From: a bacterium
Lineage (GTDB): Bacteria; Patescibacteriota; UBA1384; XYA2-FULL-43-10; JAKAMI01
Length of the DNA: 64,000 bases
NCBI GenBank assembly: GCA_021812945.1
Contig: JAKAMI010000001.1
Span: 3,637-67,636, forward strand
Direction of reading: 5' to 3'
The notes beneath the pieces are model-generated. The model was not told the DNA's origin. It did no database searches and worked only from the letters and a program-made list of their open reading frames with translations. The translations under genes and the position numbers were made by a program. Positions 12,719 through 57,459 of this stretch are shown here, one piece after another; position 1 is the first letter of the stretch, and each line of letters starts with the position of its first letter.

Positions 12719-12814
12719 ATCCATATACTGATTAGAAGCATAGCACAAACCCCCCGTAGCTACAAGCTGGGGCAAAAACTTTCATCTTAGAGTACATCTA
12801 GGGTAATTGACTGA

Positions 12815-12850
12815 TGACTGATGACTGATGACTGATGACTGATGACTTTA
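12815..12850. repeat. Heptamer microsatellite (TGACTGA/GATGACT) x5-6
   Basis: TAATTGACTGATGACTGATGACTGATGACTGATGACTGATGACTTT, downstream of the gyrA stop. Confidence 0.85.
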
Positions 12851-18959: not shown

Positions 18960-19022
18960 TATATTGAGATCCTTTCACAAACCTATTGCGCAGATAATAC
19001 CGATTTTGCCTACAAAGACAGT

Positions 19023-19063
19023 CTTTGCAAATGTGTCTAAAGACTGTCATCACTAGCCATCGG
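19023..19063. repeat. REP-like palindrome (AAAGACAGTCTTT family)
   Basis: ACAAAGACAGTCTTTGCAAATGTGTCTAAAGACTGTCATCA, upstream of gyrB. Confidence 0.75.
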
Positions 19064-20391: not shown

Positions 20392-20781
20392 TGGTGGAGG
20401 TGGCGGGAGTCGCACCCGCGTCCGAAAGGTAAAAACTTAAACTTCTACAGGCTTAGTTCCGATGAATTTTGTTTGAACAAGTGAAAATATCGGAACAAAT
20501 ATCACCTGCTCTATCTAAAGTAAGTCTTAAGGCGAATCGCTTTAGAACCGATAAGCCAGCAATTCGAAGTATGACGTGGTAATACTTTGGTCGAATAGCC
20601 AAAGTAGCCACGGTCGCGGCGATTAGGCTGCGACTGGCGCAAAAGTCATTCCTGCAAGAGCAGTATTGATTTTTGCTGAAAGTGATTTGACACTTAGTTT
20701 TGTCAACGCTTATACGGCGATTGACTCACCGGCCTGCTGCTTAAGTTTTTAATGTCCTTCCGTCGAAGCTAATACACCCCC
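20392..20781 (-). ncRNA. ssrA: tmRNA (ssrA), ~390 nt
   Basis: Minus-strand 3' end UUUCGGACGCGGGUGCGACUCCCGCCACCUCCACCA is nearly identical to the E. coli ssrA 3' end. 5' end GGGGGUGUAUUAGCUUCGACGGAAGG carries the UUCGACGG hallmark. Acceptor pairing GGGGGUG/CACCUCC. Candidate tag ORF GCA AAA AUC ...GUC GCA GCC UAA gives AKINTALAGMTFAPVAA. Confidence 0.88.
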
Positions 20782-30807: not shown

Positions 30808-30900
30808 ATTTCAGTCATCCTGAGCTTGCGAAGGATCTACCGAAGCGGATTTGTCCGGATGATGACAGTCTTTGCAAATGCCTTTAAAGACTGTCATCAT
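30808..30900. repeat. Degenerate MITE-hairpin copy (TCATCCTGAGCTTGCGAAGGATC) fused to a REP-like palindrome
   Basis: GTCATCCTGAGCTTGCGAAGGATCTACCGAAGCGGATTTGTCCGGATGATGACAGTCTTTGCAAATGCCTTTAAAGACTGTCATCAT in a divergent intergenic region. Confidence 0.7.
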
Positions 30901-33066: not shown

Positions 33067-33804
33067 CTATTGCCACAAAGGGCAGATGGTGCGAAAGTCA
33101 CACCAGATGCACTTTGGATTCTTTTTCGGTTTGAACTCTTTGGTCTTCTGGATATTTTCCGCGATCCCAAGAACTTTTTCTCGGGTTTTTTTGAACTCGC
33201 CGCTTGAGCAGGCAACTTCAACGAAGCGATTGTCGTAAAGATAATAGTACGATTTCTGGTGAATCGGGATCTCGGGAAATTTGATGAAAGCCGCAAGCGC
33301 ATAGAGATCCAGCTGGAGCGGATCCGGTTCGTCTTCAATATATTTGCCGGTTTTGTAATCGATAATTTTGAGGCCCTTAGCCGAGGTATCAAACCGGTCA
33401 ATCTTCGCCCAAAGCTCTACTCCGCCCAAATCGGTTTTGATGTTTTCCTCAGTGGCTACATAAGGGACAATCTCTGACAGCGGACTCTCCAGAAAATTAG
33501 TAAACTCCCGACCGGCCGTCTGAGCGTACCCCGTTACTGTCTTTCGATCCTTGAAAACGGCGTCGTGCTTGGCCTTATTAGCCTTATATTTTTGCTTAAA
33601 CAAAGCAATCATTTTCTCTTTGGTGCGTTCGGATTTTTCGAGATTTTTATAATAATCGTTTAGCACCGCGTGCATGATCGAACCGAAAATCAAAGGCGGA
33701 GTATCCTGATGGTACTTGTTGTAGACGCTTTTGTCGATATACCAGGCATACTCCTGCGGACAGCGCAAAAACTTCTCGATTTTCGTAAAACTCAGCTGAA
33801 ACAT
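33067..33804 (-). CDS. PD-(D/E)XK nuclease with Cas4/AddB-type Fe-S cysteines
   Basis: N-terminal Cys (RCPQEY), D...IDYKTGK nuclease core, C-terminal CIWCDFRTIC. Confidence 0.6.
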   Translation of the reverse strand: MFQLSFTKIEKFLRCPQEYAWYIDKSVYNKYHQDTPPLIFGSIMHAVLNDYYKNLEKSERTKEKMIALFKQKYKANKAKHDAVFKDRKTVTGYAQTAGREFTNFLESPLSEIVPYVATEENIKTDLGGVELWAKIDRFDTSAKGLKIIDYKTGKYIEDEPDPLQLDLYALAAFIKFPEIPIHQKSYYYLYDNRFVEVACSSGEFKKTREKVLGIAENIQKTKEFKPKKNPKCIWCDFRTICPLWQ

Positions 33805-33817
33805 AATTGCACTCGTT

Positions 33818-33866
33818 TATGCCTAAAGACAGTCTTCACACGCCTAGCAAGACTGTCTTTAGGCAT
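33818..33866. repeat. REP palindrome flanking the RAYT gene (3' side)
   Basis: TATGCCTAAAGACAGTCTTCACACGCCTAGCAAGACTGTCTTTAGGCAT. Confidence 0.85.
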
Positions 33867-34435
33867 TAATCTACATCAAATACATCTGCAGGGAATATCT
33901 GACTGGCATTTTCCATCATTTCGAGAAATGTTCTTTTATTTAATCCCAAAGGGGCCAATAATTTACGATCGCAGTATCTATGTCGAGCGGTATTTGTATG
34001 CTCTCTATAGCTGGAGTACGGATAATCCTCAGGTTGCTTACAAAGATTTTCTTTCACCGGGTTTAGGTGTATGTAATCAACCAGATAATGAAGATATTCA
34101 TCGACAGTTACAATTTTTTGTTTGTACCGATCTTGGAATAAATGACCAATCGAATTATATTTCTTATTAAAAGATTTAGAATAGCTTGTGGTTAAAGGGG
34201 ACATAATTTTGCTTGGGGGATTTTCCAACAGTTGCTTTACCAGTAGATGAAAATGGTTAGGCATCAAACAGTATGCGATGATCGAAAAATCATATTTGTC
34301 GCAATTTTCTTTCAGTCGTTTTAGAAAATATAAATAATCGTAGAAGTCCACAAAAATGTTCCTCTTTTGATTCCCGCGATTGTATAGGTGGTACAGACAA
34401 TTCGGGGCGGATTCCTTATACTTAGAGACACCCAT
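33866..34435 (-). CDS. IS200/IS605-family HuH tyrosine transposase (REP-associated tyrosine transposase, RAYT-like)
   Basis: HuH motif CLMPNHFHLL, catalytic Tyr in GHLFQDRY, N-terminal YHLYNRGN. Flanked on both sides by inverted REP palindromes. Confidence 0.82.
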   Translation of the reverse strand: MGVSKYKESAPNCLYHLYNRGNQKRNIFVDFYDYLYFLKRLKENCDKYDFSIIAYCLMPNHFHLLVKQLLENPPSKIMSPLTTSYSKSFNKKYNSIGHLFQDRYKQKIVTVDEYLHYLVDYIHLNPVKENLCKQPEDYPYSSYREHTNTARHRYCDRKLLAPLGLNKRTFLEMMENASQIFPADVFDVD

Positions 34436-34505
34436 TTTGACCCTCCATATGTGTATATATGTGTATTATACCACTTATACCACCTGTATTCCAGATTGAC
34501 AGCTT

Positions 34506-34554
34506 TATGCCTAAAGACAGTCTTGCTAGGCGTGTGAAGACTGTCTTTAGGCGT
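34506..34554. repeat. REP palindrome flanking the RAYT gene (5' side, inverted orientation)
   Basis: TATGCCTAAAGACAGTCTTGCTAGGCGTGTGAAGACTGTCTTTAGGCGT. Confidence 0.85.
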
Positions 34555-34636
34555 GAATGGCATCGGGTGCGGATAAGAAAAATCCCTGCATTGCTGCGGG
34601 ATTTTTCTTTTGATCAAAAACAAAAATTAAATCAGA

Positions 34637-34869: not shown

Positions 34870-35040
34870 CAAGAGCGTGGCGTCAAGTTATAAAGTTGAA
34901 AGTAGAAAGTAGAAAGTTATTGAATTAGTATTTATTCAGTCTAGTAATGGTATAATAGCTTTTTTAGACGTGATTTACTTTACGAACTTTATTAACTTTA
35001 CAACTTTATAAACTTTACAAACTTTATAATTTTAAGTAGA
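34870..35040. repeat. Iteron-like inverted arrays of TAAAGTT-type nonamers
   Basis: AGTTATAAAGTTGAAAGTAGAAAGTAGAAAGTTA ... TTTACTTTACGAACTTTATTAACTTTACAACTTTATAAACTTTACAAACTTTATAAT. Confidence 0.6.
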
Positions 35041-36391: not shown

Positions 36392-36528
36392 TATTTACCA
36401 CCGATCGGTAAGTTATAAAGTTCATAAAGTCGTAAAGTTTGTAAAGTTCGTGAAGTTGTAAGGTTCGTGAAGTGACACAACTTTCAACTTTATAACTTTT
36501 TACTTTATAACTTTACAAACTTTATAAC
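36392..36528. repeat. Iteron-like inverted arrays of GTAAAGTT/AACTTTAT nonamers
   Basis: CATAAAGTCGTAAAGTTTGTAAAGTTCGTGAAGTTGTAAGGTTCGTGAAGTG-ACACAAC-TTTCAACTTTATAACTTTTTACTTTATAACTTTACAAACTTTATAACT. Confidence 0.65.
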
Positions 36529-39500
36529 TCATTGTCCCCTCATTTTGGTCAAAAACCTCGGCACCCAGGAGAAAGAACCGGTAATGGCGTCCATAATCAT
36601 CTGGAAGAGCTGTTTCTGCTTGGGCGGAGTGATCAGCGAAAAATCATCGGAAAAAGACTGATTGGCAGACCGATCCTTTGAGGTGACTCTGGCGTGGTAA
36701 GCCGAGTTTGCCTTGAGATCGTTCAGGATAATGACGTGAGTTTGGTTGAGAGACAAGTCCTCCTTTGTTTTCGAATCGTATGTTCCGGAAACCCCTTGGC
36801 CGTATTCGACCTGGCTTGTTGCCGACTCGTCGGTCTCCCAAGAGATGATGGCCTGATATTTGATGGCATTACCCGAACCGCTGGAGGTAATCTCGCTCTT
36901 CAGATTGGAAATGACCGGCGGAGTGGTATCGGCAGTGGTGGTGAAACTTATCTGACCGGAAACCGCGGTGTTGCCGAACTTATCCGTGCCTCTGGCAGTC
37001 GCGGTGTAGCCTTGCTTGGCCACCAAGCCGATGATAGTCACCGAGTGAATGGTGGTAGAATCGGATTTGCCCTGCTGACCCTGCTGGATGGCGGTTGGCG
37101 CATTTTGATCGACAGCCCGGCCTTCAACTTGAATAGCGGCGACGGGGGAGGTGGAAGCAAATTCAACATTGGAATCGGTATTGACGTTGGTATTCCAGGC
37201 GAGGGTGGCCGAGTTGGCCGAAGTCTCAGTAGCTTTGAAATCGGAGATTATCGGCTGCGCCGGAGTGGAAAAGACATAATCGTCCGAGGTGGTAATGTTG
37301 CCGTCCGTGTCTGTGGCTTTGATGCGGAGGTGATAAATGGCGCCGTCTTTAAGCTTGTCAAGCTTAAACTTGTGCTCGGTATTTAAGGTGGTGTCGATCA
37401 GGGTTGCGCCATAGCCGGTGGAATCGCCATAGTCCAAGCTAGTGATCGAGAGTTTGGAGGTGGACCAGGAGACCAGCGCTCCGGTCTGGGTAATGTCGGA
37501 GATAGTGGTGCCGGAAATCAGAAGCAGGATCCGCTCCGGTGTGGTGAAATCCAGCACATCGGAGTAACCAGCAATCTGAATCTCGTTCTTGGAGATAACC
37601 TTAAAGTAGTATTTAGCGGCCGGATCAAGATTGTAAAGCCAGATCTCGTGATTTAGAGTCATCTTCGGATCGCCGGCGATCTTAACGACCCCGCCATTAT
37701 CCGCAGTCATATCATCTTTGGCGTGGATTGAACTGGTCGAATAGGCCACCGAGGAGTCAGCGTTCTGATCGGTATCCCAGCTGATCTTGGCGCGAACTCC
37801 TTGGTCTTGTTTCCAGCCGAAGAGCTCGACCTTGGGTTTGGCCGTGACATCGGGTGCCGAACCGGGTTGAGATGAGAGCGGGCCGGCCGGAATAGAGAGG
37901 TTGCCGGCAGTGTCTTCGGCCTGAACCTTGTAGGCGTAAGTAATGCTGGAGGAGAGGTTAATATCCAGAAAGCCGTTTTTGGTGGTGGTGTCGACCTGAG
38001 AGTAAGTTGCGCCGTCGGTCGAACGGAAAACATGATAAGTCTTGGGTACCGGCACCACGTCATCCCAGACCAACGTCAAACGATACTTATTTGTCGCTAT
38101 GGTTGACCCATCCTTGATGGCAAAGTTGGCCGGCGTGCCATACAGAGTTTTGGAGGTCTGGGTTAAATTGTTCTCAAGATCCCTAAACTTGAAGTAGATA
38201 ATGTTTTTGTTTTGCAAATCAAAGTTATTCTTTGACGTTGCGTAACTCTCCCAGGAACCGCCGGCAAAGCCGGAGTCCATCGAGATCATCATCTGGATCG
38301 GATTTGAGTCATCGGTGACGTTTAAGACCAAGTTGACCGAGCCTCCGGCCGAGGCATCGCTAACAATCGAGTTGACCAACGGGTTCTTGGAGTCCAGAGT
38401 CAACAAGCTGGAATCGGCATAAGCATTTGAGCCTTGAGCGGTGACTTTGACCCGCATCTTGAAGGTGTTGTTCAAGAATTGGCCGTCAAAATCGACTTTG
38501 GGATCAAAGTAGGCGGTGTATTGCGGCAGGCTGGCGTCACCGTTGAAGCTGCCGTTGGTCTGTCCGGATTGAGCAGGGGCCGAAGCATTGGCCCAGGAGT
38601 TGCCGCCGGAGTTAAAGTAAGCGAGACTGACTTGGCTCGGCCAACGCAGTTTATACATCACCTTGACCTTGCCCGGATTGGCCGGATCGGTGCGGTCGAG
38701 CTGGACCGCCGTTACCTCTCTGGGGGCAATGTCGGCCGGCACGGCGTCTAAGGTGATACTCTTGTCGGTTTCAAGGTAAGAGTTGTCCTGTTTTTTGTAG
38801 GCATAAGAAACTTTGTAGTAGTAGTGGTTGCCGTTGGTCAGACCGGTGTCGGTGTAGTCAGTGCGCGTGCCGGCAGTTACCGCCAGCGGGTTGGGAGTGG
38901 TAACGATCTTGCTGTAGTTGGTCGGAAAGGCGGAACAGTCGGTGGTCGGGCTTAAAACGGGGCCTGCGGCGCAACGATAAATATAGGCCTGCGGCGTCAA
39001 GCCAGTGTCGGCCGGTATGTCAAAAGGATTGGTCCAAGTCAGGGTGACTTGCTGATAACCCGGGGCGGCTTCGATCAGATCGTTGACAAGGCCGGTGTGG
39101 TCGGTGGCGGTGTGGCGCGAGCCGGGAATATGAGTGGTAACGTAGACTTTGCTCGGATTGTTGGTCGAGGCCGGAAAGATACCGGTCGAGGCCGGATTTT
39201 TCGAAGGATCGGCCGGTTCAAGCCGCGGATCGGTTTTTTTGGTTGAAGGATCGGTAGCATAAGTCGAAGTTGGATCGACACATTCTGAGGCCGAAAGACT
39301 TTGGTAGCCGCCGGTTTGGAACTTGAAGTAATTTGTCGGGGTGTTTTGCGGAGTAAAGGTATGTGCCCCGAGATCGCCGGCCGGAAACTGGAAACAGCCG
39401 GAAGAGTCGGTCGAAACGGTCTTAGTGTAAGGCAAAACCGCTTGGGCATCGGAAGAATAAAAGTAAACCATACCGGCCTTAGAAGTCGGATCGTAGCCGT

Positions 39501-42500
39501 AGTCGGTTTTGACATTGCCGAAAGCGTCGAAGGCCGTCAGGGTGACATTTTCGCTAAAAGTAGTGTCGACTTGTTTTTCGTAATTGACCGAATTTCGAGA
39601 AATGATCGGGGTGGTGGTAATGCCGAAATGGTCGATCGACTGCGGTTTGACCGTGATGGTAAAGTCGGAAAACTTGTTGCCGTTATCCGAGGTCTTGACC
39701 CGAAAACGCAGATCTGTGCCGGAAGTCACCACGTTGAAACCGCTGCCGGCAAACTGATGAACACCGTTGTCGGCGCCGGTGCCCGAAGTAAAAGTATAAT
39801 GGGTGAGATAATCGTTGGCAAAGGTAAAATTGGCCGTGGAGCTTGCCGGATTGCCCGGGGTATCCGAGCCGCGATAAAGCTCAAACCAGACTTGACCGGT
39901 AAAGTTGTCTTTGACGTTGTTGTAGGCGTCGTAGGCGGTGACGTTGGGATTGTAGGGAGCGGCGGAGAAGCCGGGGGTATCCCAGGTGAAGTTACTCATA
40001 GCAAATCTTTGGGAGGCCGTTTGCGGGTAGGAAGCTAAGCCGAAATGGTCGGTTGAAGCGGCCGTGACGAAAATATTACCAATAGCATCGTATCTACTAC
40101 CTTCGGAGTTGTGCACCACAATTGACTGATTATCCTTGGTCTTTAGAACAAAGCCGGTGCCGGGGAAAGTATGAGCCCCGTTGTCCCCTCCGGCGCCGGT
40201 CGTGAAGGTGTATTTTACAACGTCCGTATAGGGAAAAGTCGCCTGCGAGTCGGAGGAGTAAAACCAGATTTGGCCGGTCCAGTCGTTTTTGGTATTGCCG
40301 TAAACGTCTTTGACCGTGACCACGATGTCATTGGCCGGCGAGGTAAAGGGAGTGCCGGCCACGATGTTAGTCGGATAACCGGAAAGCTGGAAGGAGCCGA
40401 AACCGGCCGGCTTGACGGTGATGCCTTGCGTCGCGTCTGTCCAGCCCAGCGACGGCGTCTCGGAAACAGTGATGGTATAGGGCACGCCCACCGGATTGGG
40501 CGAGGTGTCCTTGTAAAAGAAATTGGCGGAGTTTGAACCGACGCCGATTGTCAGGGTGTTGCTCGGAACCGTGGTCAAGCAACCGCCATCAGAGTAAAAA
40601 TGGCCGGTGGCGGAGTTGGTTTGCAGCACAAAGTTTTTCGCTCCCTCGGTGGCGGTTAAGGCGACGTCCTCGTTAATGACGTTTCGAATGCGATACTCCA
40701 TAATCGCCGAGCAGAAGGTGACGGTAATGTTTTGGGCGGCGGTGGTAAAAGCGGTGTGATCGATCGGAGCCACGGTAAAGGAACGGGCGGCCGAGGCGGC
40801 AGACCAGTGCTTGGAGCCGTCAAAGGAGTCCACACCCTCGGGGTCGTAAGCATAAGCGCGATAGTAAAAGGTGTCGCCCTGATGAAGTGCGGTAGCCAAA
40901 GTCAGCACGGCATCGCGGCCCGAGGAGTAGCCGCTGGTGCCGGCGACTTTGCCGGTAGCCATATCCTGATTGGAGAAATTGGCCGTGCGGTTGCCGTCGT
41001 TTGGCGTTTGCGACACGGTCTCGTCGAAAGTCGAGACATTCTGGCTAAAGCTGGCATCGGTCGCCAGCTGCAACTTATATTGAATCCAGTCACCATCCGG
41101 ATCGGTCGAATTAAAGTGAAAAGCGATAAGTTGAGATTGGTTGATGGCGCCATCAGTCGAGGGCGCGGTAATGGTCGGAGCGCTCGGCGAGTGCTGAACT
41201 TGAATAGTGCCGTTGCCGCCGGCCGCGCCGCCACCAACACCGCAAGTACCGCCGGTGGCAGTCTTGGCGCCGGTATATGTATCAGTAGCCGGATAAATAG
41301 CTATTCGCCCTCCGCCTCCGCCGCCGCCAAAAGAGGCGCTGTTGCCGCCGTTGGCGGTAATGGTTGCGCCGGTGGTGCCGGACAATGTGCCCGAGACAAC
41401 CACTTGCACCGAGCCGCCCGAGCCGCCGCCAAAACCGGCCCCGCCATCGGTACCGTTGGCGGTGATCTTGCCGGTTGCGCCCATCGCCAAGTTGCCGGTG
41501 ACGTTCATCTTGACCATGCCACCGCCGGAGCCGGCGTTACCGGCCCCCGACTGGCCGGCGTGCCCGCCGCCCGAGCCAAGATAATTGTTGTTTGTCTGGC
41601 TGCCGTAGGCCGCGCCGCCAACTGAGCCGCCGGAAGAGTTGCCGCCGGCTCCGCCGTAACCGCCGCCCGAGCCATAGGCCCAGTTGGCCACCACGCTCCC
41701 GTGCCCGGGTCCGGCGTCTTGAGCAAAGCCGTTGCCGTCGGCCGAAACCGTCCCCGAAAGAGTCAGATTGCCCCCGACATTCAAAGTCGGCCAAGCACCC
41801 TGCGTGGGCGTGCCGGAGTTGTCCGAGAGCATCGTGAGGGAAGAATTGGAAGCTATCGTAACCGCCCCGGTAGTGGTGACGATTTGGTTTTTTGAAAGAG
41901 CAAAATTACCCTTGTTGAGGATTGAAATAGAATCAAAAGCGTATGTTGCAGTATCTGTAGATGTTTTGAGAAAAGTATACCCGGGACCAGTGTTACCGTT
42001 ATTGTTAACAATGAGTCTACCATTTGCTTCACCTGGATGTATCTCAAAAACCGTCCCTGCTGATGCATAGAAACCATTATAGGAACCAAGACTATAAGCT
42101 GAGTCAACTCCGTTATATGTCCATGAAGAATTTGCAGAAATCTTGACCCGACCACCACTTCCGGCACCGCAACCAGTCGAGTACCCATTAGCCGATATGG
42201 CCCCATTTCCCGCAAAGTTAACCGTTGTAATATTTATAGAACCACCAGCTGCACTTTGATTGTTTCCCCCATTCGCCAAAATACTATTGGTCGAGTTGGC
42301 GCTTACTGTTCCGGTGGCATTTATTGCCGCTACACCACCACCACCGGTAGAATAGCCACAAACAGCAGTCCCTCCAAGTAACGAAGGATTCGAGTAGTCA
42401 CCAAAAGCATCGCCCTGCGGGTACCCCTGGCCGCCATAACTATAATTACCAGTACCTAATAATCCTTGGGTTGAAACATCTATTTTACCGCCATTCTGCA

Positions 42501-45500
42501 GAGTCAAATTAACAAGGTTAAGTATAAGTTTGTAGCTCTCAGACGTCGTATTTGCTACATGTGACACAACACCACCAGTATCAACAGTCATATTAAAGAG
42601 CGCTCCTCCGCTAGAATCTGTAATTTTACCAGTAATACTCCCCCCACTCGGTGCCTGATACCAGCCTGTATCGCAAAGCGTCGTGCCGTCGGCTTTTTTG
42701 CAGGTCGTACCCATCTCGAGGGTGTAATTCGAAACCGTCCAGCCAGTCGCCGGAACTTTCAGAGTACCATAAACGTCAAGCACACCGCTGGTCGCGCTGC
42801 CTGTAAAAGGAGTATTGGCCGAAATATCTAGTGTTTGGCCCGTAAAGATTGCTAATCGGCCCTGGTTCTTGACAGTTATCACATCAAACACGTACGATCC
42901 ACTGTCGCTTGAGGTTTTAAGGGCTGTGTTTTGAGAAGTCGCTTGGTTCGAGTTATCAATAATAATTTCACCGTTTGCTTCCCCGGGTTTTCTGACAAAA
43001 ACCGTTCCAGCAGCCCCCACATTGCCTCCGCCCCAATTACCACCATAGGCAACAGCTGAACTAACCGAATATGTCCCGGTGGCCTCCAAAGCGATTCTTC
43101 CACCCGATCCTCCGGGGTAAGCACTGCCGTCGCTCGCAGAAACAGTACCGGTACTTGTCAGGTTTGTGGTCTTTAGCCATATGCTACCGCCGGCGCCGTT
43201 TGAGGGCGCATTGGATAAGATACTGCCACTATTTGTCACGCTGGTTGCTATAATTTTGGCTACACCTCCTCCGGCTTGGCCGCCATAGTACTGAGTACCG
43301 CCGCTACCCAAGCGGTTGGGGGAATCATAACTGCCGTATTGGCTATTGGTATATCCATAACCATCACCGCCATATGAGCCACCCCTAGAGTTCAAAGCGC
43401 CGCCGGCCGGTCCCTGAATATATCCCATACCAGAGACGTCTACTTTACCCCCAGTTTGAATAGTTAAAGATCTCAAATTAACAATAAGTTTGTACTGTTC
43501 GGTGCTTGTATTCTGAACTAAATTGTAGGCTTGGGATAATGCTCCACCACTGGCTATCGTCAGATCCACAACATTACCACCAGTCGGATCGGTTATCTTG
43601 CCATAGAGGGTTGTATTGGCCGTAGTGTCGTCCCAACCGGGATCGCATCCGCCCCCGGCATTTTTGACACAACTGGTGCCGACGCCTAGAGTATAATTGG
43701 ATACCGTATAACTGGTCGGGACTTTGATCGTACCAAAAGTAGTTAGAGACCCAGTGCCATCCCCGCCGATAGTGGTGCCCGAAGTAATATCGAAAACCTT
43801 AGAGGTTCCGTTAATATCAAGTTTTCCGCCGGAATTGAGAGTAATGGCCGTAAAAGTGCTTCCGCCCGTGGAATTTTGAACGCTGTTCGACGAGGCTCCG
43901 TTATCAACGAGTCTGAAGCCGGAAATTGTTGGCGAATCTTTGAGCTTTATTACTCCGGTAGCCTTGATAAGCCCGGTACAATAGTAGCCGATAGCGTCAG
44001 CGCCACCGCCGTAAGTATTGCAGGCGCCACCGCCGGTAATGTCAAAAGCTGAGGCGTTTACGGTTTGGCCGGAAACAATTTCCAGCCGGCTTCCCTTATT
44101 GACTGTGATTGCATCAAACGTATATACCCCTGTGTCAGTCTCTCCCATCAGGGTTGCGCCAAGATCTGAGCCGTTGTCGAGACCGGCGTTATCCAAAACT
44201 AATCGCCCATTGGTGTCCCCAGGCCGTTTCTCATAAACCGTGCCGTTACCCCCGGCATCATTCCAGCCATCAACTACCTTGCTTGCCGACTCAGTTCCGC
44301 TAAAAGACCAAACGCCCGTTGCATAAATCGCTAATCGTCCACCACCGCCCGATGACGGAGCACAACAGCCATTTGAACCGCTCCTAGTCACGACTGAACC
44401 GTTACCCGAAAAGGACGCCGAGGTTATCCAAATACTACCTCCCGAGCCTCCGCCAGAACCTGTACCCGATGCCGACATTGTTCCGTTAACCGCCACTGAA
44501 CCGGTTGAGGTGATTTTGATCGCCCCACCAGAATTACCGCCACTGCCCAAGCTTACCGGTTGTGAATAACTCCCATAAGTAGCGTGGGTAGAATTATTAG
44601 CTGATCTGCCTCCATACTCACTGGTCGTTTTTAAGCCGGGGCCGTTTGATTTGCCTTTTGCGTCAGCGTTCATATTACCGTTGGTACCAATAACAAGACT
44701 GCCTACGGCATATTCATTCCCCCGCCCGTCAGCCAAACTACCATGCAATACAGTCGTGTCTCCGTCCGAGGTCACTATACCAGAATTGATAATAAATTCG
44801 CCGGTAATATTAATCTTATACGGGTCAACGTTCTGCGACGGCTTATTTTGAAAATTAATCGTGCCGGAGTAACCGGTCTCCACATATAGGCCGCCGAGAC
44901 CATCGACAATACCGTTGCCGGAGGTGAAAGTTGTTACCGTGCAATTTTGGACCGAAGATGGGTCAAAGACAACGATGTCGCCAGCCGCCGGCGCCCCTGA
45001 AGGCGTCCAGTTGGCTGCGGTTTCCCAGTTTCCGGCTGCCGCGGCGGTCCAGCGTTTGACACTCGGGGCGTAGTTTAAATTGTAAGGGCTGGCCGTACCG
45101 GAGACAAAGACCACCGGAGAATAGGAGTTAATGCCGCTGTTTCTGTTTGTAAATATTTTCGCGGATGCGGCCACCCAAGCGAACGAACCACTTAACGTCG
45201 CATTGTGCCCACCGCTAGAGGAATCGGCAGCTAATGTTCCAGATCCTTCATCAAAATGCCACAACCCAACGGTATTGCCGTCGGTTGTAAACTGATTTAT
45301 TGGGGGGGGAAAACTAGATGTATAACGCGCGATGTTTGAGATTCTAAGTTCGTCGATTGTTCCAAAATTTTGCCCTCCATAGGCCATACTGTTGCCAAGC
45401 ACAGTAATATCATCTGTCAGCTGCATATTTGCCGTCCCAACAAGCAAGCCGTCAATATACATTTTCGTCGTCCCGGAACTGCCAACCCCAGTAAGATAAT

Positions 45501-48210
45501 GCCACCCTGAAGTTAAACTAGTTACATTATAATTCGACGTGTAGAAGTTCCCGTTATAAACCCCCAACTGGCCATCTCTTTCAACAACAATATGCTGGTT
45601 ACTTATGGTGCCCTTTACAAGTGTCCGACGACCGTCACCGGTTGTTGGCAAAGGAAATTGCACCCACGCCTCCACTGTCCAAGTGCTACCAATTACAACA
45701 TTTGATACAGTGCCAGAACCAGAACTTGGGGAATTAAAGTTTATTGCTGCATTACTGGATCCCGTTTGCGTAACAGGTGTCGGCTTCAGTGCTGCCTGGG
45801 CGATCAGGTTGTTGCCGTTATCGGTGGTGACGGCCACGGCCACGCCGAAAGTGCCGGCAGAGCCGATTTTTTCCGCATACTTGATATTGTAAGAATTGAC
45901 CCCGACGTATTCCGAGTAGTAAAGGTAGATGGCATCGTTTAAGCCCAGGCCGAGACTGGGATTTTTGTCATTGGCGTGGCTGGCGCCGGTGGTGACGGCG
46001 GTTGAGGCGGCGTCCCAGCTGGCGGCGGCGTTGGCACATTTGCGGTATTTGATCCCGACCGAGTTGTCTTTCCAGGCCAGATGGAGGTAGTGATCGCTGG
46101 TTTCCTGCCCGATCGAGAACTCTTGGTTTAGGGCGGTTCCGACATCGGAGGCGATGGTCTCGTTGGCCCAGCCGGCCGTTTGGAAAGTGCCGGCAGTGGC
46201 GTAGTTCCACCTGAGAGAAGCATTGGCGAAGTTGTAGATAACAGCCGGATTATCATTCCAGAGAGTGAGGGCGGGGTAAGTGGCGGCATTGGTGTTGACG
46301 GCGGCCGATAATGTTGACGCCGCACCCCAAGTCGAGCCGTCGGCGGCAGTTGAGGCTTTGGCTTTGATAGTGTAGTTGGTGGCATCATAATACCGATAAG
46401 CGACAAAGATGGTGCCGGAAGATGTGACCGCAACGGCGGGGAAAGCCTGGGAAGTGCCGGCGCTCTCGACGGTTCTTTCGGTGCCGGTGGAGGTGATGGC
46501 GTGGGTAGCGGTGTCATAGGTCATCTGGCGGTAGAAGATGTAAGAGTTGGTGCCATTGTTGGAGTAGGCCAGATGGATCTTGTTGTCGGCGGTAATCCAA
46601 GAAGAGAAGCCGTAGTCATCGGTTAGAGTCGAGGCAAAGATTTGGGTGCCGGTGGCGCTCCAGGTGTTGCCGTGGTCGGAAGAGATTTTATATGAGAGGC
46701 CGTTACCGTCGGAGTAGATGTTGACCATATCCCCGTTGGTCGCCTCCAGTAGCGTCCGGTCTTTGGAGAAGGAGTTGGGGTTGGTGGTGGTGGAGGTAGC
46801 GACGGTGACGGTGGGGTCAATGGTTAGAGGATACTCAGGCGAGCCAAGACAGTCTTTCGGGGCATTGGCAAAGACTGTCTGGTTGCCGCTGCCTGAAAGA
46901 CTGTTGTCGCTGCCCGGAGACGACAGTCTTTGCCGGTAACAGGCATTGGTTTGAGCCAGCCAGTTTGGATCGATCTCATAGCGAGCTAGGTTGGCGCTTT
47001 GGTCTAGGGTTAGTTTAATCTTGTCGTCGAAATGATTGCCGGTTTTATCGGTTAAGGTCGCTTTGAGTAGGGTGAAGAGTCCCTCCTGAGTTTGTTGGTC
47101 TTTTAGCACATAGGAGCTGTCCGGGTTAGAGATGATACTTAAGTTGCTTAAATTACTTAAGTTAAAATCAATGGATGAAATGCTTCCAAGAGCTTTGGGT
47201 GAGTTTAGAACAAGGTCTTCTTTGAGCTTACCCGGGCTGACTTGGTAGTTGGCGGTAATCTCGGGGTTGATCTCGAGGGAGTACTTTTGCTTGGCTCCGT
47301 CGTTTTCGCGGATCTTGACACCGGAGGCAACCTCTTTCTTGGTTTTGACGTCATCCGATGTAACAGCTTTTGGCACATTGGGAGTATTTGTCTCGTTGGT
47401 CAGATTAGTCCCGTTGGTCGGGTTGGAACTGTCCGATGGAACATCAGCGGCTTGAGCAGTTTCAGCGAAGACAGCTTCAGCCAAGACAGTCTTTTTAGCT
47501 TCAGCAAAGACAGTCTTGTTGCTCCCCGAAAGACTGTTATCACTGCCCGAAGATGACAGTCTTTGCCGGTTTAAGGCAACCTGATCTTTGGGGACTAGAA
47601 GATCGAAACCGACTTTTCTAACCTCACCGTCTTTGTTCTGGGTAGCCACCGAGACCGAGGCATTTCTGGTTGTACGATCGGAGAGGTTGACCGTTAGCTG
47701 GTCGGAAGAACCGGTGATCGCGGCCGAGTCGTCAACTTTACCTTTGGCTTTTTCCTGAACATTGGGAATGTCCGCTCGCGAGCCGACAACAGCCACCGAA
47801 ACCGATTTAAGTCCGGAGAAAGGCTGATTGGCTTTTGTCTCCGAAAACGAGGAGGCATACAAGCTCAGCCCGAACACAAAAGACAGGCAGACCAAAGCCA
47901 AAGCTGAAATGTTTATCTTGGAGGCGTTGGGGTTTAAGTGCCAGAGGTAGTACCACCGCCACTTCATCCTGAGATTGTTGTGGACCGGGATAAAGAATCG
48001 AAAGCTAGTGCGAGTCGAGTTTTGAATGGACATCAACTGATTATTGAGCTTGGATTCGACATCCTGGCCACTGAACGATTCCGGTAATTTACCGGAAAGT
48101 TTGGCTGACCGGATAATTTTTTGCACCAGAAAAACGGCCGCCCCTTTAGGGAAAGTCAGAATTTTATGGATGATGTACCGGATTTTTAACATATAACCAC
48201 TAATAATCAC
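36529..48210 (-). CDS. Giant (3,893 aa) surface/adhesin-like protein. N-terminal membrane anchor, LamG-like lectin, BNR/Asp-box, long Gly/Ser-rich parallel beta-helix repeats, multiple FN3-like domains.
   Basis: Single uninterrupted ORF. BNR motif SDHGNTWS, LamG-like [19 protein letters not shown], extensive GGSGG/SGGSGGRI repeats, FN3-like C-terminal modules. Contains two in-frame REP-derived segments. Confidence 0.8.
46848..46935. repeat. REP-derived segment embedded in-frame in the giant protein gene
   Basis: CAAGACAGTCTTTCGGGGCATTGGCAAAGACTGTCTGG...GAAAGACTGTTGTCGCTGCCCGGAGACGACAGTCTTTGCC. Encodes [29 protein letters not shown]. Confidence 0.65.
47465..47575. repeat. REP-derived segment embedded in-frame in the giant protein gene (second copy)
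   Basis: GAAGACAGCTTCAGCCAAGACAGTCTTTTTAGCTTCAGCAAAGACAGTCTTG...GAAAGACTGTTATCACTGCCCGAAGATGACAGTCTTTGCC. Encodes [36 protein letters not shown]. Confidence 0.65.
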
Positions 48211-49089: not shown

Positions 49090-49235
49090 TTCCTAAAATT
49101 CTAAACTCTAAATTCTAAATCCTAATGAAATTCAAAGCTTCAAATTCAAAAACCCTAAACTTTTTTGAGTTTTGAATTTCAAAATTTTGAATTTTTTTAG
49201 AGTTTAGAGTTTCGGATTTAGAGTTTTTAGACATC
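49090..49235. repeat. Large nested palindrome built from TCTAAA(T/C) heptamer arrays and TTTGAATTT inverted core
   Basis: CCTAAAATTCTAAACTCTAAATTCTAAATCCTAA ... ATTCAAAGCTTCAAATTCAAAAA/TTTGAGTTTTGAATTTCAAAATTTTGAATTT ... TTTAGAGTTTAGAGTTTCGGATTTAGAGTTTTTAG. Confidence 0.7.
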
Positions 49236-50448: not shown

Positions 50449-50576
50449 ACTTTCCTTAAATTACCAATAATCAACGATCAATGATCAATTAATTATCAAT
50501 GGACAAGGGGGAAATGAAAATTAATACTTGATTATTAAATGATAATTGAAAATTGATATTTGAAAATTGAATCCGG
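50449..50576. repeat. Solo copy of the AT-rich core found in the three rnpB insertions (TGATCAA-rich half plus TTGAAAATTGATATTTGAAA half), lacking the terminal hairpins
   Basis: CAATAATCAACGATCAATGATCAATTAATTATCAATGG...TTGAAAATTGATATTTGAAAATTGAAT matches the rnpB insertion cores. Confidence 0.6.
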
Positions 50577-52058: not shown

Positions 52059-52146
52059 AGCCGCGACGGTCAAGACACAAGCAGGCCCCGGGGCCGACCG
52101 GCCCCGGGCCCAACTGCTCCTGACATTGTTTGCTTGGTTTGATAAT

Positions 52147-52288
52147 ATTAGTTTGTAGCAAAATGTGGCTTGTTCCGTCATCCTTAAGCTGATGTCTGTG
52201 ATCCTTAAGCTTGTTCTGTCATCCTGAGCTTGCGAAGGATCTCTACTTATGGAATAGATCCTTCGCAAGCTCAGGATGACAAAATACG
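52147..52288. repeat. MITE-like element with perfect 24-bp hairpin arms (right boundary of GC-rich islet)
   Basis: ATTAGTTTGTAGCAAAATGTGGCTTGTTC...GTCATCCTGAGCTTGCGAAGGATC-TCTACTTATGGAATA-GATCCTTCGCAAGCTCAGGATGAC. Near-identical to 56385..56485. Confidence 0.85.
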
Positions 52289-55373: not shown

Positions 55374-55441
55374 CTTGTCAACACAAAAACCACCCATGAT
55401 GGCGGTTTTTGTGTTGACAATCCGCTATAAATAGCTATAAT
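55374..55441 (+). promoter_or_regulatory. Terminator hairpin (20-bp arms) overlapping the rnpB promoter: -35 TTGACA 55414-55419, -10 TATAAT 55436-55441
   Basis: TTGTCAACACAAAAACCACC-CATGAT-GGCGGTTTTTGTGTTGACAA, then ATCCGCTATAAATAGC and TATAAT. The predicted start lands on the P1 5' strand. Confidence 0.5.
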
Positions 55442-55474
55442 TAAACTGCTTAAGTGAACCGGGTAATAGCCCTA

Positions 55475-55641
55475 CCGTGTAAAGCACGGAATGATCAAAA
55501 TAATATTCAATGATCAAGGATCAGTTAATGTTCAATTATCAATGATCAAGCAAGTACTTGAAAGTTGAAACTTGATATTTAATTGAAAATTGATATTTGA
55601 AACTTGAAAATTAATCTTTGATACTTCCGCGCTTTGCGCGG
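55475..55641 (+). repeat. rnpB insertion 1 (167 bp) at the P3 position
   Basis: Begins CCGTGTAAAGCACGG, AT-rich TGATCAA/TTGAAA core, ends CCGCGCTTTGCGCGG. The two termini are imperfect inverted repeats (14/15 pairs as RNA). Confidence 0.85.
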
Positions 55642-55738
55642 CTGGGGAGGAAAGTCCGGGCACCAAAGAGTATGGCACCAATGAAAGTTGGCTGGCGTAA
55701 TGCCACGGGAATAGTGCAACAGAAAACATACCGCCGAA

Positions 55739-55912
55739 CCGTGTAAAGCACGGAATGATCAAAATAATATTCAATGGTCAATGATCAATGATCAGTTAAT
55801 ATCCAATTATCAATAATCAATTTAACTATTGAAAATTGAGAATTGATACTTAATTGAAAATTGACACTTGAAACTTGAAAATTAATCTTTGATACTTCCG
55901 CGCTTTGCGCGG
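55739..55912 (+). repeat. rnpB insertion 2 (174 bp) at the P9 position
   Basis: Same termini and core as insertion 1. Replaces the P9 hairpin between ...ACCGCCGAAC and UGGUAAGG. Confidence 0.85.
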
Positions 55913-56076
55913 TGGTAAGGTTGAAATCGTAGTGTAAGAGACTACGCGTTTGATGGGAAACTATCAACTGTGAAAACCCTGCCTGGTGCAAGTTGGGTGG
56001 GCCCTTTATCATCATTTGCGGCTTCTCGTCGCGATGACCTCGGGTCCCAACGCTTAGATAGATTATTGCCGCCGCG

Positions 56077-56250
56077 CCGTGTAAAGCACGGAATGATCAA
56101 AACAATGTTCAAGGATCAATGGTCAATGATCAGTTAATATCCAATTATCAATGATCAAGCGAGTACTTGAAAATTGAGACTTGATATTTAATTGAAAATT
56201 GATATTTGAAACTTGAAAATTTATCTTTGATACTTCCGCGCTTTGCGCGG
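56077..56250 (+). repeat. rnpB insertion 3 (174 bp) in the linker between the P2 and P4 3' strands
   Basis: Same termini and core. Flanked by ...UUAUUGCCGCCGCG and CGAGGUACAGAACCCGG. Confidence 0.85.
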
Positions 56251-56345
56251 CGAGGTACAGAACCCGGCTTATAGGTTCGTTTAAGCACAGAGCTACATTT
56301 AGGCCTCCGTAACTTTATGGCCTGTCCCCTTCGGGGGAATGTGGC

Positions 56346-56380
56346 GACACCCCTACTAGCGTGGGGGTGTTTTAATTTTC
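56346..56380 (+). terminator. Intrinsic terminator downstream of rnpB
   Basis: ACACCCCTACTAGCGTGGGGGTGTTTTAATTTT, preceded by a UUCG-loop hairpin CCCCTTCGGGGG. Confidence 0.6.
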
Positions 56381-56384
56381 TAAA

Positions 56385-56485
56385 ATTAGTTTGTAGCGAA
56401 ATGTAGCTTGTTCTGTCATCCTGAGCTTGCGAAGGATCTATTCTATAGGTAGAGATCCTTCGCAAGCTCAGGATGACAAAATATC
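56385..56485. repeat. MITE-like element with perfect 24-bp hairpin arms (second full copy)
   Basis: ATTAGTTTGTAGCGAAATGTAGCTTGTTCTGTCATCCTGAGCTTGCGAAGGATC-TATTCTATAGGTAGA-GATCCTTCGCAAGCTCAGGATGAC. Confidence 0.85.
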
Positions 56486-56496
56486 AATCGGAGAGC

Positions 56497-57459
56497 TCAA
56501 TCATTAGTAATTTTCTTTACCTCTCCCTCCTTTAGCTCAACCCCATCGGACTTTTTAACCTCCTCCAGATATTGGTCGATTTTATCAAGACCCGCATCGA
56601 CATTCGTCTCCGGTTTTCCCGGTTCTTCAAGCCCTTGTTCATCGCTGATCCCGCGATCGGAGTTTTGCTCGTTCATCACCCCATCTCCTAATAACGACTG
56701 GGGAGGCTGCTGATATTGTTCAAAACTTGGTTCGGACTCATCATTCGCGCCACTAAAGTTATCACCTGTACGGTTTTCGGACAGGCTAGGATTCTCTGAA
56801 TTGTTCCGATCCAGCATCGGCAAACTCTCGATATATCTCGGATCGGCCGGGTTATTTTGTAATTCCTGAGCGGGCGGTTGAATCCTGGTTATGACCCCTT
56901 GCTCAATATTTTGCTCGGTTAGAATCCGATCCCGTTCGATCTGACTCTCGTGCAAATCGGCAATTTTTTTAGAGACTCGGTAGGGATGAGGGACGGAATA
57001 AAAAACAAAGTTCTCTCGCTCTCCAGCGGTCTGGATATGAACGTCTCCGTAGTGGAACATGGTCGGGAAGAAACCTTCGACTTTGGCGCTGACATCTTGA
57101 ACCTCTCTTAAGTGCAGTTCGGCGATTTCACGCCTAAAAAAACCGATTTGGCGGATATCGACTATTCTTTCGTCGGTAATTATGTAAACGTCGAGATAAT
57201 AATCGACAAAACCGTAAAGCAAAAGTCCGATGATAAAGAGCAGGTAGGCCGATCCGCCCAGAGTCAATAAGCTGTTCACAAGTTCGCTGCTGAACGTATC
57301 CGGAGAATGAATATAGAGAGCAACCAGTATGGCCAGGGGAATCATCATTATCATAGCTATGACTAAAAATGAGATGTAAGTGATCACGTCTCTTCTTAGA
57401 ACCAGAAAAATTCTTTCACTGGGCGCTTGACCCGGAAAATATCGACCCTCGATAGCCAT
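56497..57459 (-). CDS. Membrane protein with bacterial PH (bPH_2/YdbT-like) domain and acidic C-terminal tail
   Basis: Two TM helices, then a PH-like core (IITDERIVDIRQIGFFRREIAELHLREVQDVS...GDVHIQTAG). Low-complexity Asp/Glu/Gln-rich C-terminus. Confidence 0.55.
   Translation of the reverse strand: MAIEGRYFPGQAPSERIFLVLRRDVITYISFLVIAMIMMIPLAILVALYIHSPDTFSSELVNSLLTLGGSAYLLFIIGLLLYGFVDYYLDVYIITDERIVDIRQIGFFRREIAELHLREVQDVSAKVEGFFPTMFHYGDVHIQTAGERENFVFYSVPHPYRVSKKIADLHESQIERDRILTEQNIEQGVITRIQPPAQELQNNPADPRYIESLPMLDRNNSENPSLSENRTGDNFSGANDESEPSFEQYQQPPQSLLGDGVMNEQNSDRGISDEQGLEEPGKPETNVDAGLDKIDQYLEEVKKSDGVELKEGEVKKITND

Follow-up and report, generated by a model that had tools for sequence, protein, structure and literature searches.

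The interrupted RNase P RNA gene

The 64-kb stretch of contig JAKAMI010000001.1 analyzed here (hereafter, the window) contains two RNA genes recognized by Rfam, one for transfer-messenger RNA (tmRNA) and one, rnpB, for a type-A RNase P RNA. Our subject is rnpB and the three hairpin-forming insertions, here called modules, that account for 515 nt of its approximately 839 nt and leave a core of approximately 325 nt. The proteins encoded next to it have their best matches in Ca. Berkelbacteria or Patescibacteria. The gene, its parts and its flanking signals are arranged as follows, together with one related intergenic hairpin.

55414 to 55441, plus strand: sigma-70-type promoter, TTGACA, 16 nt, TATAAT (12/12 consensus)
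55448 to 56286, plus strand: rnpB, type-A RNase P RNA (RF00010, folds, comparison with relatives)
55448 to 55460, plus strand: P1 5' strand, partner 56274 to 56286 (unconstrained minimum free energy, or MFE, fold of the whole transcript)
55462 to 55469, plus strand: P2 5' strand GGUAAUAG, partner 56063 to 56070, UUAUUGCC (sequence; covaries with the relative L090)
55470 to 55474, plus strand: P3 basal 5' strand CCCUA, partner 55643 to 55647, UGGGG (aligns with the P3 stems of relatives)
55475 to 55641, plus strand: module copy 1, 167 nt, in place of the P3 tip (repeat comparison, folding)
55642 to 55738, plus strand: core segment 1, with P3 3' strand, P4 5' strand GAGGAAAGUCCGGGC, P5, P7, P8, P9, P10, P11, J11/12 and P12 base (RF00010 alignment)
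55739 to 55912, plus strand: module copy 2, 174 nt, P12 tip (insertion inside the model's P12 hairpin)
55913 to 56076, plus strand: core segment 2, with P12 3' strand, J12/13, P13, P14, P11' to P5', P15 to P17, J18/2 (P18 absent), P2 3' strand and P19 base 5' strand GCCGCG (RF00010, relatives)
56077 to 56250, plus strand: module copy 3, 174 nt, between P2' and P4', where it tops a P19-like helix (native hairpin of relatives)
56251 to 56286, plus strand: core segment 3, with P19 base 3' strand CGAGGU, P4 3' strand ACAGAACCCGGCUUA and P1 3' strand
56346 to 56381, plus strand: intrinsic terminator, 11-bp stem, then T-rich tail (terminator located at 56346 to 56371)
50449 to 50576, plus strand: intergenic hairpin of TCAATGA / TTGAAAA heptamers, without GC termini, between ABC ATPase and permease genes

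An earlier note on this stretch, made from its letters, had recognized an RNase P RNA gene in three separated segments, and the RF00010 model (RNaseP_bact_a) agrees. Despite the 515 nt of insertions, it scores 124.2 bits over 55607 to 56287, against a gathering score of 100, and its alignment places P4, P5 to P11, J11/12, P13, P14, P15 to P17 and P4' on the three core segments, in order. Both strands of P4 are present in this alignment, and P13 and P14, which belong to the type-A specificity domain, are aligned with high posterior probability. P18 is absent from the window gene and likewise from three genes of relatives described below (L090, L103 and L105), and this feature is known to vary.

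The 5' boundary returned by cmscan is wrong, in that the 5' strands of P1 and P2 are forced onto the tail of module copy 1 with many noncanonical pairs, and the true 5' end of rnpB is G55448. The promoter that the note had pointed out matches the consensus at all 12 positions and ends 7 nt before this residue, and because of its position we place the transcription start at about G55448; the terminator that it had taken to bracket the gene also stands. P1 and P2 do pair, although at coordinates that differ by 1 to 2 nt from those first proposed. An unconstrained MFE fold of 55448 to 56290 (843 nt) gives P1 13 pairs, while P2, 8 bp read from the sequence, shows compensatory changes relative to L090, whose strands are GGCAGUAG and UUGCUGCC.

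The three module copies lie at exactly the coordinates that the note had given them and are 87.2 to 90.9% identical in pairwise comparison. Every copy begins CCGTGTAAAGCACGG and finishes CCGCGCTTTGCGCGG, and the consensus termini, as RNA, are CCGUGYAAAGCACGG (15 nt) on the left and CCGCGCUUUGCGCGG on the right. Each terminus folds on itself, and left and right, together with the adjacent GGAA and UUCC, also pair with one another in a GC-rich clamp of about 17 to 19 bp, the left terminus matching the reverse complement of the right at 12 to 13 of 15 positions. Within the window these 15-mers are confined to the rnpB copies: a scan allowing up to 3 mismatches returned 7 matches (1.4 expected), 6 of which are the module termini. 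The interior is AU-rich, one arm being a tandem array of heptamers and the other an array of their complements, and Tandem Repeats Finder detected a period of 7 in both arms of all copies, of TCAATGA type on the left and of TTGAAAA type on the right.

Each window copy, when folded alone, is predicted to form one long hairpin (-55.8 kcal/mol, z = -8.1). Across the copies, single folds gave -56 to -65 kcal/mol with z of about -8 and 61 to 68 predicted pairs, that is, a hairpin of approximately 65 bp, and their AU-rich stems are predicted to contain many small internal loops. When the whole transcript was folded without constraint, module bases paired solely within their own module. Every reading frame of the modules is rich in stops, and gene callers called no gene inside rnpB.

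Copy 1 stands in for the tip of P3, as proposed earlier, and the base of that helix is kept. Copy 2, which had been assigned to P9, instead lies inside the model's P12 hairpin, between J11/12 (ACAGAAAACAUACCGCC) and GGUAAGGUUGAAA, and P9 is intact in the RF00010 alignment, with a GUAA loop at about 55690 to 55704. Copy 3 does fall between P2' and P4', although not in a bare linker: its flanks form the base of a P19 helix, and a native P19-like hairpin is found in all the relatives (ACCUuuuuuAGGU in L090, CCCAGC...GCUGGG in L088, 68 nt in L102 and GCUUGCAAAAGC in L103). P3, P12 and P19 are peripheral in type-A RNase P RNA, so the modules occupy sites where no tertiary contact is known. The intergenic hairpin at 50449 to 50576 had been taken for a solo copy of the module core. 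It does consist of the same heptamers, with a 20-nt exact match to the module interior and a score of z = 14 against shuffles, but it is not a full copy, because the GC termini are absent.

Modules in relatives and in 23S rRNA genes

Syntenic loci of relatives, which we gathered through the bPH2 neighbor of rnpB, have RuvB identities of 75 to 82%, and their rnpB genes score 186 to 201 bits with Rfam. The gene of L090 (346 nt, 201 bits) has no insertion, those of L103 and L105 are compact and contain no module, and in that of L102 P12 is unrelated and P19 is long. The gene of L088 (529 nt, 186 bits) contains a single module, at a P12 position shared with the window, whose termini, the same as in the window, are CCGUGCAAAGCACGG and CCGCGCUUUGCGCGG and whose 91-nt AT-rich interior has almost nothing in common with that of the window copies. 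With three modules in the window gene, one in L088 and none in L090, L103 or L105, the modules are sporadic among close relatives. The only rnpB detected in the relatives sits in the matching neighborhood; among GTDB genomes approached by RuvB-based synteny, the nearest metagenome-assembled genomes (MAGs) were 70 to 75% identical, with no rnpB near ruvB (E <= 1, motif search). In L088 and L090 the order is bPH2, QueA, rnpB on one strand, and in the window (55448 to 57459) queA and queH are lost or moved and rnpB runs opposite to bPH2; judging from gene order, the neighborhood is rearranged around rnpB in the window relative to these two loci.

With the modules spliced out, the window core (328 nt) is colinear with the compact rnpB of L090 at 81% identity, and it forms 89 of the 95 consensus pairs, as many as the genes of relatives do. 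Compared with L090, 25 changed pairs are still paired, 13 of them altered on both sides, and 2 are broken, and because changed pairs mostly stay paired, we consider the core helices to be still under selection. A 1021-nt region was 100% identical in ENA ERZ27237563, GCA_027460745.1, GCA_027348845.1 and GCA_021839875.1. Since four independent assemblies agree, misassembly is excluded, which settles a concern that the note had raised about repeats of this kind.

It could still be imagined that this locus is a pseudogene in decay, or a product of faulty assembly, and that the true rnpB lies elsewhere, as repeats can mislead assembly, two 23S contigs (L096 and L101, below) show collapse across two module copies, and just 64 kb of the genome is visible. 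However, the four identical assemblies, the perfect promoter and terminator, the intact universally conserved segments, the compensatory substitutions relative to L090 that indicate continuing helix selection, and the presence of the relatives' only detected rnpB in the same neighborhood all argue otherwise, and we consider this explanation exceedingly improbable. [quoted passage not shown] This confidence applies jointly to the identity of the gene, the positions of the modules, their predicted autonomous folding, selection on the core, and homology with the 23S modules described next.

A metagenome scan that demanded both termini, 86 to 146 nt apart, returned 8 contigs from one population. 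The Fpg and nucleotidyl-transferase neighbors on these contigs are proteins of Ca. Berkelbacteria CG1_02_42_45, and the contigs represent a 23S rRNA gene (1131 bits with the large-subunit, or LSU, model). This gene contains two near-identical modules of 155 to 156 nt with termini as in the window, one in the hairpin at LSU model positions 274 to 297 and the other in helix 25, and a third insertion, in helix 45, has different ends and similar heptamer repeats. Helices 25 and 45 of 23S rRNA are classical sites of intervening sequences (IVSs) processed by RNase III.

Two further CPR 23S loci, L110 and L111, were found via an intron-encoded LAGLIDADG protein. L110 contains variant modules at 3698 to 3838 (termini CCAUGCUUCGCAUGG and CCCUGUGGAGCAGGG) and, in helix 25, at 4131 to 4302 (termini CUGUGCGUAGCACAG and UUGCGCUAUGCGCAG). 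In L111, the end of a helix-25 module copy occupies 1 to 63, a short module in helix 45 (GUGCgcaGCAC ... GCGCuguGCGC) occupies 675 to 790, and a module at 1367 to 1494 sits at the tip of the hairpin at LSU model positions 1861 to 1931, which is helix 68. The L111 module interior is significantly similar to the window interior (z = 10.6). A strict scan for the module architecture across 1.24 Mb of fetched DNA, mostly from unrelated bacteria, matched these modules and nothing else. No module was found in the window's other 63 kb or in approximately 200 kb of Berkelbacteria-like loci, and viral contigs scanned twice with both termini gave no match.

The 23S loci show three further features. At 3583 to 3597 of L110 stands a plain native 23S hairpin, CCGCGCTTTGCGCGG, identical to the module right terminus (also given as CCGCGCUUUGCGCGG); it aligns with approximately positions 151 to 177 of the Rfam LSU model in L099, and the module may have targeted it, arisen from it or left it behind. 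In L096 (5407 to 5562) and L101 (931 to 1086), the sequence to the left of the first 23S site runs through a single module into the sequence to the right of helix 25, a junction that skips approximately 290 nt of 23S and that is most likely a collapse of short-read assembly across two module copies, which is a caution for rRNA reconstruction in these organisms. Finally, LAGLIDADG homing-endonuclease open reading frames (ORFs) lie within module-bearing 23S genes (L099, 5325 to 5801 and 6552 to 7133; L110, 6001 to 6453; L111, 1795 to 2247), and therefore group-I-type introns and hairpin modules coexist in one gene. Gene callers called no gene in the 5' half of the 23S gene.

Origin and fate of the modules

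We compared six distinct left/right terminus pairs for covariation. The self-hairpins of the termini are paired in 72 of 72 cells, with 5 pairs changed on both sides, and the left-right duplex is paired in 89.5% of cells, with 7 pairs changed on both sides, among them the loop triplets AAA/UUU, GUA/UAU and UUC/GGA. Because left and right pair with one another, loop triplets included, the right end is an inverted copy of the left. One asymmetry is constant: at a position where the left hairpin, GUGY...GCAC, pairs U with A, the right hairpin, GCGC...GCGC, pairs C with G, so that the duplex of left and right termini includes a U-G wobble and an A-C mismatch. We also considered strand asymmetry as a sign of RNA-level selection and rejected it, as folding energies and G-U counts show no consistent difference.

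The termini are conserved across genera and host RNAs, the interiors diverge between genomes and are homogeneous within a genome, and all copies found so far lie at surface-helix tips of stable RNAs. Conserved termini, free interiors, sporadic presence and location at surface-helix tips match the behavior of bacterial IVSs, and also the short, ORF-less, non-intron insertions recorded at known IVS sites of CPR 23S genes (PMC11270868). The modules therefore form a palindromic, IVS-like insertion family specific to this lineage, all of whose copies so far have been at stable-RNA helix tips. An IVS-like element was among three options that the note had left standing, and the modules with the same termini in helix 25 and another 23S hairpin of related Berkelbacteria, along with the variants of like architecture in helices 25, 45 and 68 elsewhere, make it the best supported of them.

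We propose an account that we regard as reasonably probable when taken as a whole, combining a working rnpB, an IVS-like module family, spread at the DNA level and excision by RNase III. The apical parts of P3, P12 and the P19-like helix would each have been replaced by a palindromic insertion of about 170 nt, and the resulting hairpins of approximately 65 bp would project away from the ribozyme core. Modules may have spread between helix tips at the DNA level, by recombination or through an enzyme acting on their palindromic termini, and the route we favor is recombination, or template switching, from one GC-rich palindromic helix tip to another. Once the gene is transcribed, RNase III may excise the long duplexes, as with IVSs, and the RNase P RNA would then be in four pieces held by P1, P2, P4 and the GC clamps.

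Alternatively, the modules may be conventional miniature inverted-repeat transposable elements (MITEs), another of the note's options. They would then be nonautonomous DNA transposons with 15-bp terminal inverted repeats recognized by a transposase, seen in rnpB and 23S merely through tolerated insertion and search bias. The terminal inverted repeats, matching at 12 to 13 of 15 positions, are indeed present, the elements are small, lack ORFs and occur in several near-identical copies per genome, and a Y1/IS200-like transposase is encoded in this genome (33866 to 34435). However, comparison of the flanks at six different insertion sites revealed neither a target-site duplication or other direct repeat nor a target sequence in common. 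All three window copies lie in one 0.33-kb gene, with none in the other 63 kb, and in the DNA examined each copy found lies at a helix tip of a stable RNA, with none outside stable-RNA genes. The Y1 transposase gene, moreover, has flanking hairpin repeats of its own (core AAGACAGTCTT), which are unrelated to the modules. We thus regard a conventional MITE as unlikely. Repetitive extragenic palindromic (REP) sequences and bacterial interspersed mosaic elements (BIMEs) share with MITEs and with the modules a short, noncoding, hairpin-forming sequence with terminal inverted repeats and several copies per genome, and the modules differ from all of these in lacking target-site duplications, in having no intergenic copies that we saw, in sitting at stable-RNA tips, and in that the only transposase found has unrelated ends. 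A mechanism of IS200/IS605 type was also considered and rejected, as one terminus is an inverted, not a direct, copy of the other, and no conserved tetranucleotide lies 5' of the left end.

The modules could also be introns, of group I, group II or bulge-helix-bulge (BHB) type, with exons religated to a normal RNase P RNA of approximately 325 nt. Group I and group II introns abound in CPR stable-RNA genes, the module-bearing 23S genes among them, as the LAGLIDADG ORFs of L099 and L110 illustrate (PMC11270868). Yet no Rfam intron or ribozyme model matched even at E <= 10, and over 55400 to 56400 the best match besides RF00010 at this threshold, to a plant microRNA model, reached 27.6 bits against a gathering score of 230. 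The modules are simple hairpins of 121 to 174 nt with no conserved core besides the termini, and their junctions form continuous helix without the two 3-nt bulges of the BHB motif. Introns are thus very improbable, and the note's remaining option, a self-excising element, does not agree with a plain hairpin that matches no intron or ribozyme model.

Another explanation is that the modules are retained, as giant helix extensions similar to rRNA expansion segments, in a one-piece RNase P RNA of approximately 840 nt, where the only role of the GC clamp would be to keep the AU-rich hairpin apart from the core as the RNA folds. Retention is consistent with the placement of the modules where added RNA is sterically harmless, with AU-rich stems whose many small internal loops may make them poor RNase III substrates, and with PMC8172020, in which CPR RNase P RNAs that have large helix extensions are drawn as continuous molecules. 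The homologous modules, however, occupy the exact 23S sites where RNase III cuts bacterial IVSs (PMC11270868). In addition, conserved termini beside drifting interiors are what a processing or mobility signal, and not a neutral extension, would predict. As an explanation of the whole, we would give retention somewhat less than an even chance. On the narrower question of what becomes of the transcript, our analysis suggests chances for excision that are even or barely better, and for retention even or barely worse; this slight lean to excision arises because homologous modules sit in IVS sites and because near-continuous duplexes of at least 60 bp, which speak against retention, are generic RNase III substrates.

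Several points weigh against the account that we propose, with its IVS-like family and excision by RNase III. Outside the 64 kb that is visible, the genome may hold a second, uninterrupted rnpB. The link between rnpB and 23S modules is drawn between different genomes and not within the window organism's own, and the taxonomy of L110 and L111 is inferred solely from their CPR-type 23S and the related LAGLIDADG ORF. A motif search found no RNase III (rnc) gene in the window or the fetched loci, a result that is uninformative for partial genomes such as these. The covariation of the termini is partly circular, with six rows only, one of which (L111, 1367 to 1494) was found by a scan requiring these pairings. 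Finally, sense and antisense module folds are about equally stable and so do not distinguish RNA-level selection from a DNA palindrome.

A bolder version of this account, which we put forward tentatively and would ourselves rate short of an even chance, is that a mobile palindromic IVS element of Berkelbacteria targets stable-RNA helix tips generally and that RNase III removes its three copies from the rnpB transcript. The active ribozyme would then consist of fragments of roughly 27 to 45, 100 to 130, 165 to 200 and 40 to 55 nt, held only by P1, P2, P4 and the clamps. If excision does occur, this would be, to our knowledge, the first case of natural fragmentation in a bacterial RNase P RNA, and the modules would be the first IVS family we know of that is common to rRNA and another ribozyme.

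The rRNA IVSs of helices 9, 25 and 45, as in Salmonella and Coxiella, resemble the modules in several respects. They are ORF-less, approximately 100 to 250 nt long, and replace the tip of a surface helix, which their inverted-repeat ends lengthen; they are sporadic among relatives, and copies within one gene are alike. The window modules differ in their host, which is rnpB and not helix 9, 25 or 45 of rRNA, although homologous modules occupy helices 25 and 45 elsewhere, and also in the presence of three copies in one small ribozyme, the heptamer interior, and doubly palindromic termini conserved across genera. Excision by RNase III without religation, the defining property of an IVS, is for the rnpB modules a candidate property only. 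In CPR 23S genes, the known IVS sites 23IS2 and 23IS4 commonly hold short ORF-less insertions that are not introns, and these are assumed to serve as RNase III substrates (Tsurumaki et al. 2024, PMC11270868).

In the literature that we searched, no IVS or repeat element has been reported in bacterial RNase P RNA beyond the short tandemly repeated repetitive (STRR) heptamers of cyanobacteria. These heptamers, found in the RNase P RNA of heterocystous cyanobacteria (Vioque 1997, cited in PMC2858038), are the closest RNase P precedent. As in the window, heptanucleotide tandem repeats lengthen P12 of a type-A RNase P RNA with the catalytic core untouched, and a similar repeat type also occurs in intergenic DNA of the genome. 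The window repeats, in contrast, are TCAATGA and TTGAAAA, which differ from the STRR consensus heptamers, have a CPR host, are packaged with GC termini, occupy three sites (P3, P12 and P19) and also occur in 23S. The cyanobacterial repeats stay in the RNA, and they are an analogue of the modules, not a homologue. Within CPR bacteria, the passages on rnpB in Lui, Nielsen & Arkin 2021 (PMC8172020) report large helix extensions (e.g., P15) or missing helices and diverged genes that often score under Rfam thresholds; the RNAs described in those passages have single extended helices, and neither recurring copies of one element nor a connection with rRNA insertions is mentioned there. The novelty of the window gene is therefore its host, an RNase P RNA, and its load, three copies amounting to 515 nt on a 325-nt core.

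A natural RNase P RNA 2.5 times the usual size, or one in four fragments, would be informative about the tolerance of peripheral RNA and the need for covalent continuity in vivo. The 23S link suggests that rRNA is not the only host of the many uncharacterized short insertions known from CPR rRNA genes; such insertions would form a family that colonizes stable-RNA helix tips in general, and the origin, spread and processing of IVSs would thereby be open to comparative and biochemical tests, with the doubly palindromic conserved termini as a handle for finding the enzyme involved. Because these insertions push rnpB toward or under Rfam thresholds and break assemblies at rRNA genes, they also matter for checks of MAG completeness.

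Other repeats and genes of the window

The tmRNA gene at 20392 to 20781 (minus strand) is of the standard one-piece type (127.6 bits, tag peptide VKSLSAKINTALAGMTFAPVAA) and has no module-type insertion; therefore, the modules are not in every stable RNA of this organism.

Several other repeat families occur in the window. The IS200-like Y1 transposase gene at 33866 to 34435 (minus strand; Pfam Y1_Tnp, 1.4e-16) adjoins a gene for a PD-(D/E)XK/Cas4-like nuclease (33067 to 33804) and lies between two inverted copies of a hairpin repeat, 55 nt long with core AAGACAGTCTT (33816 to 33870 and 34504 to 34558), a layout that looks like the arrangement of a REP-associated tyrosine transposase (RAYT) and its REPs known as a REPtron. 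Short palindromes with the same core at 18984, 28013, 46883, 47476, 47516 and 51433 are probably a dispersed REP-like family of this transposase, unrelated to the rnpB modules. Members of a second palindromic family, about 110 nt long and ending in a long hairpin (GTCATCCTGAGCTTGCGAAGGATC ... GATCCTTCGCAAGCTCAGGATGAC), lie at 52138 to 52286 and 56376 to 56483 (87 to 91% identical), one of them directly after the rnpB terminator, with partial copies near 30810 and 51401.

Intergenic hairpins whose arms consist of tandem 7- to 9-nt repeats and their complements are found at 12808 to 12847, 34892 to 35034, 36416 to 36529, 49091 to 49226 and 50449 to 50576; in one example, after the giant ORF described below, multiple copies of TAAAGTTCG face multiple copies of AACTTTAT. 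This genome seems prone to building STRR-like hairpins, and the module interiors are of this type.

Among the protein-coding genes, that for GyrB (16312 to 19053, minus strand; 913 aa) contains an intein (Pfam Intein_splicing, residues 525 to 667) before the Toprim domain. A giant ORF of 3893 aa at 36529 to 48210 (minus strand) is rich in Gly, Ser and Thr and resembles a surface protein; giant ORFs of this kind are typical of CPR genomes, and the size of this one is remarkable.

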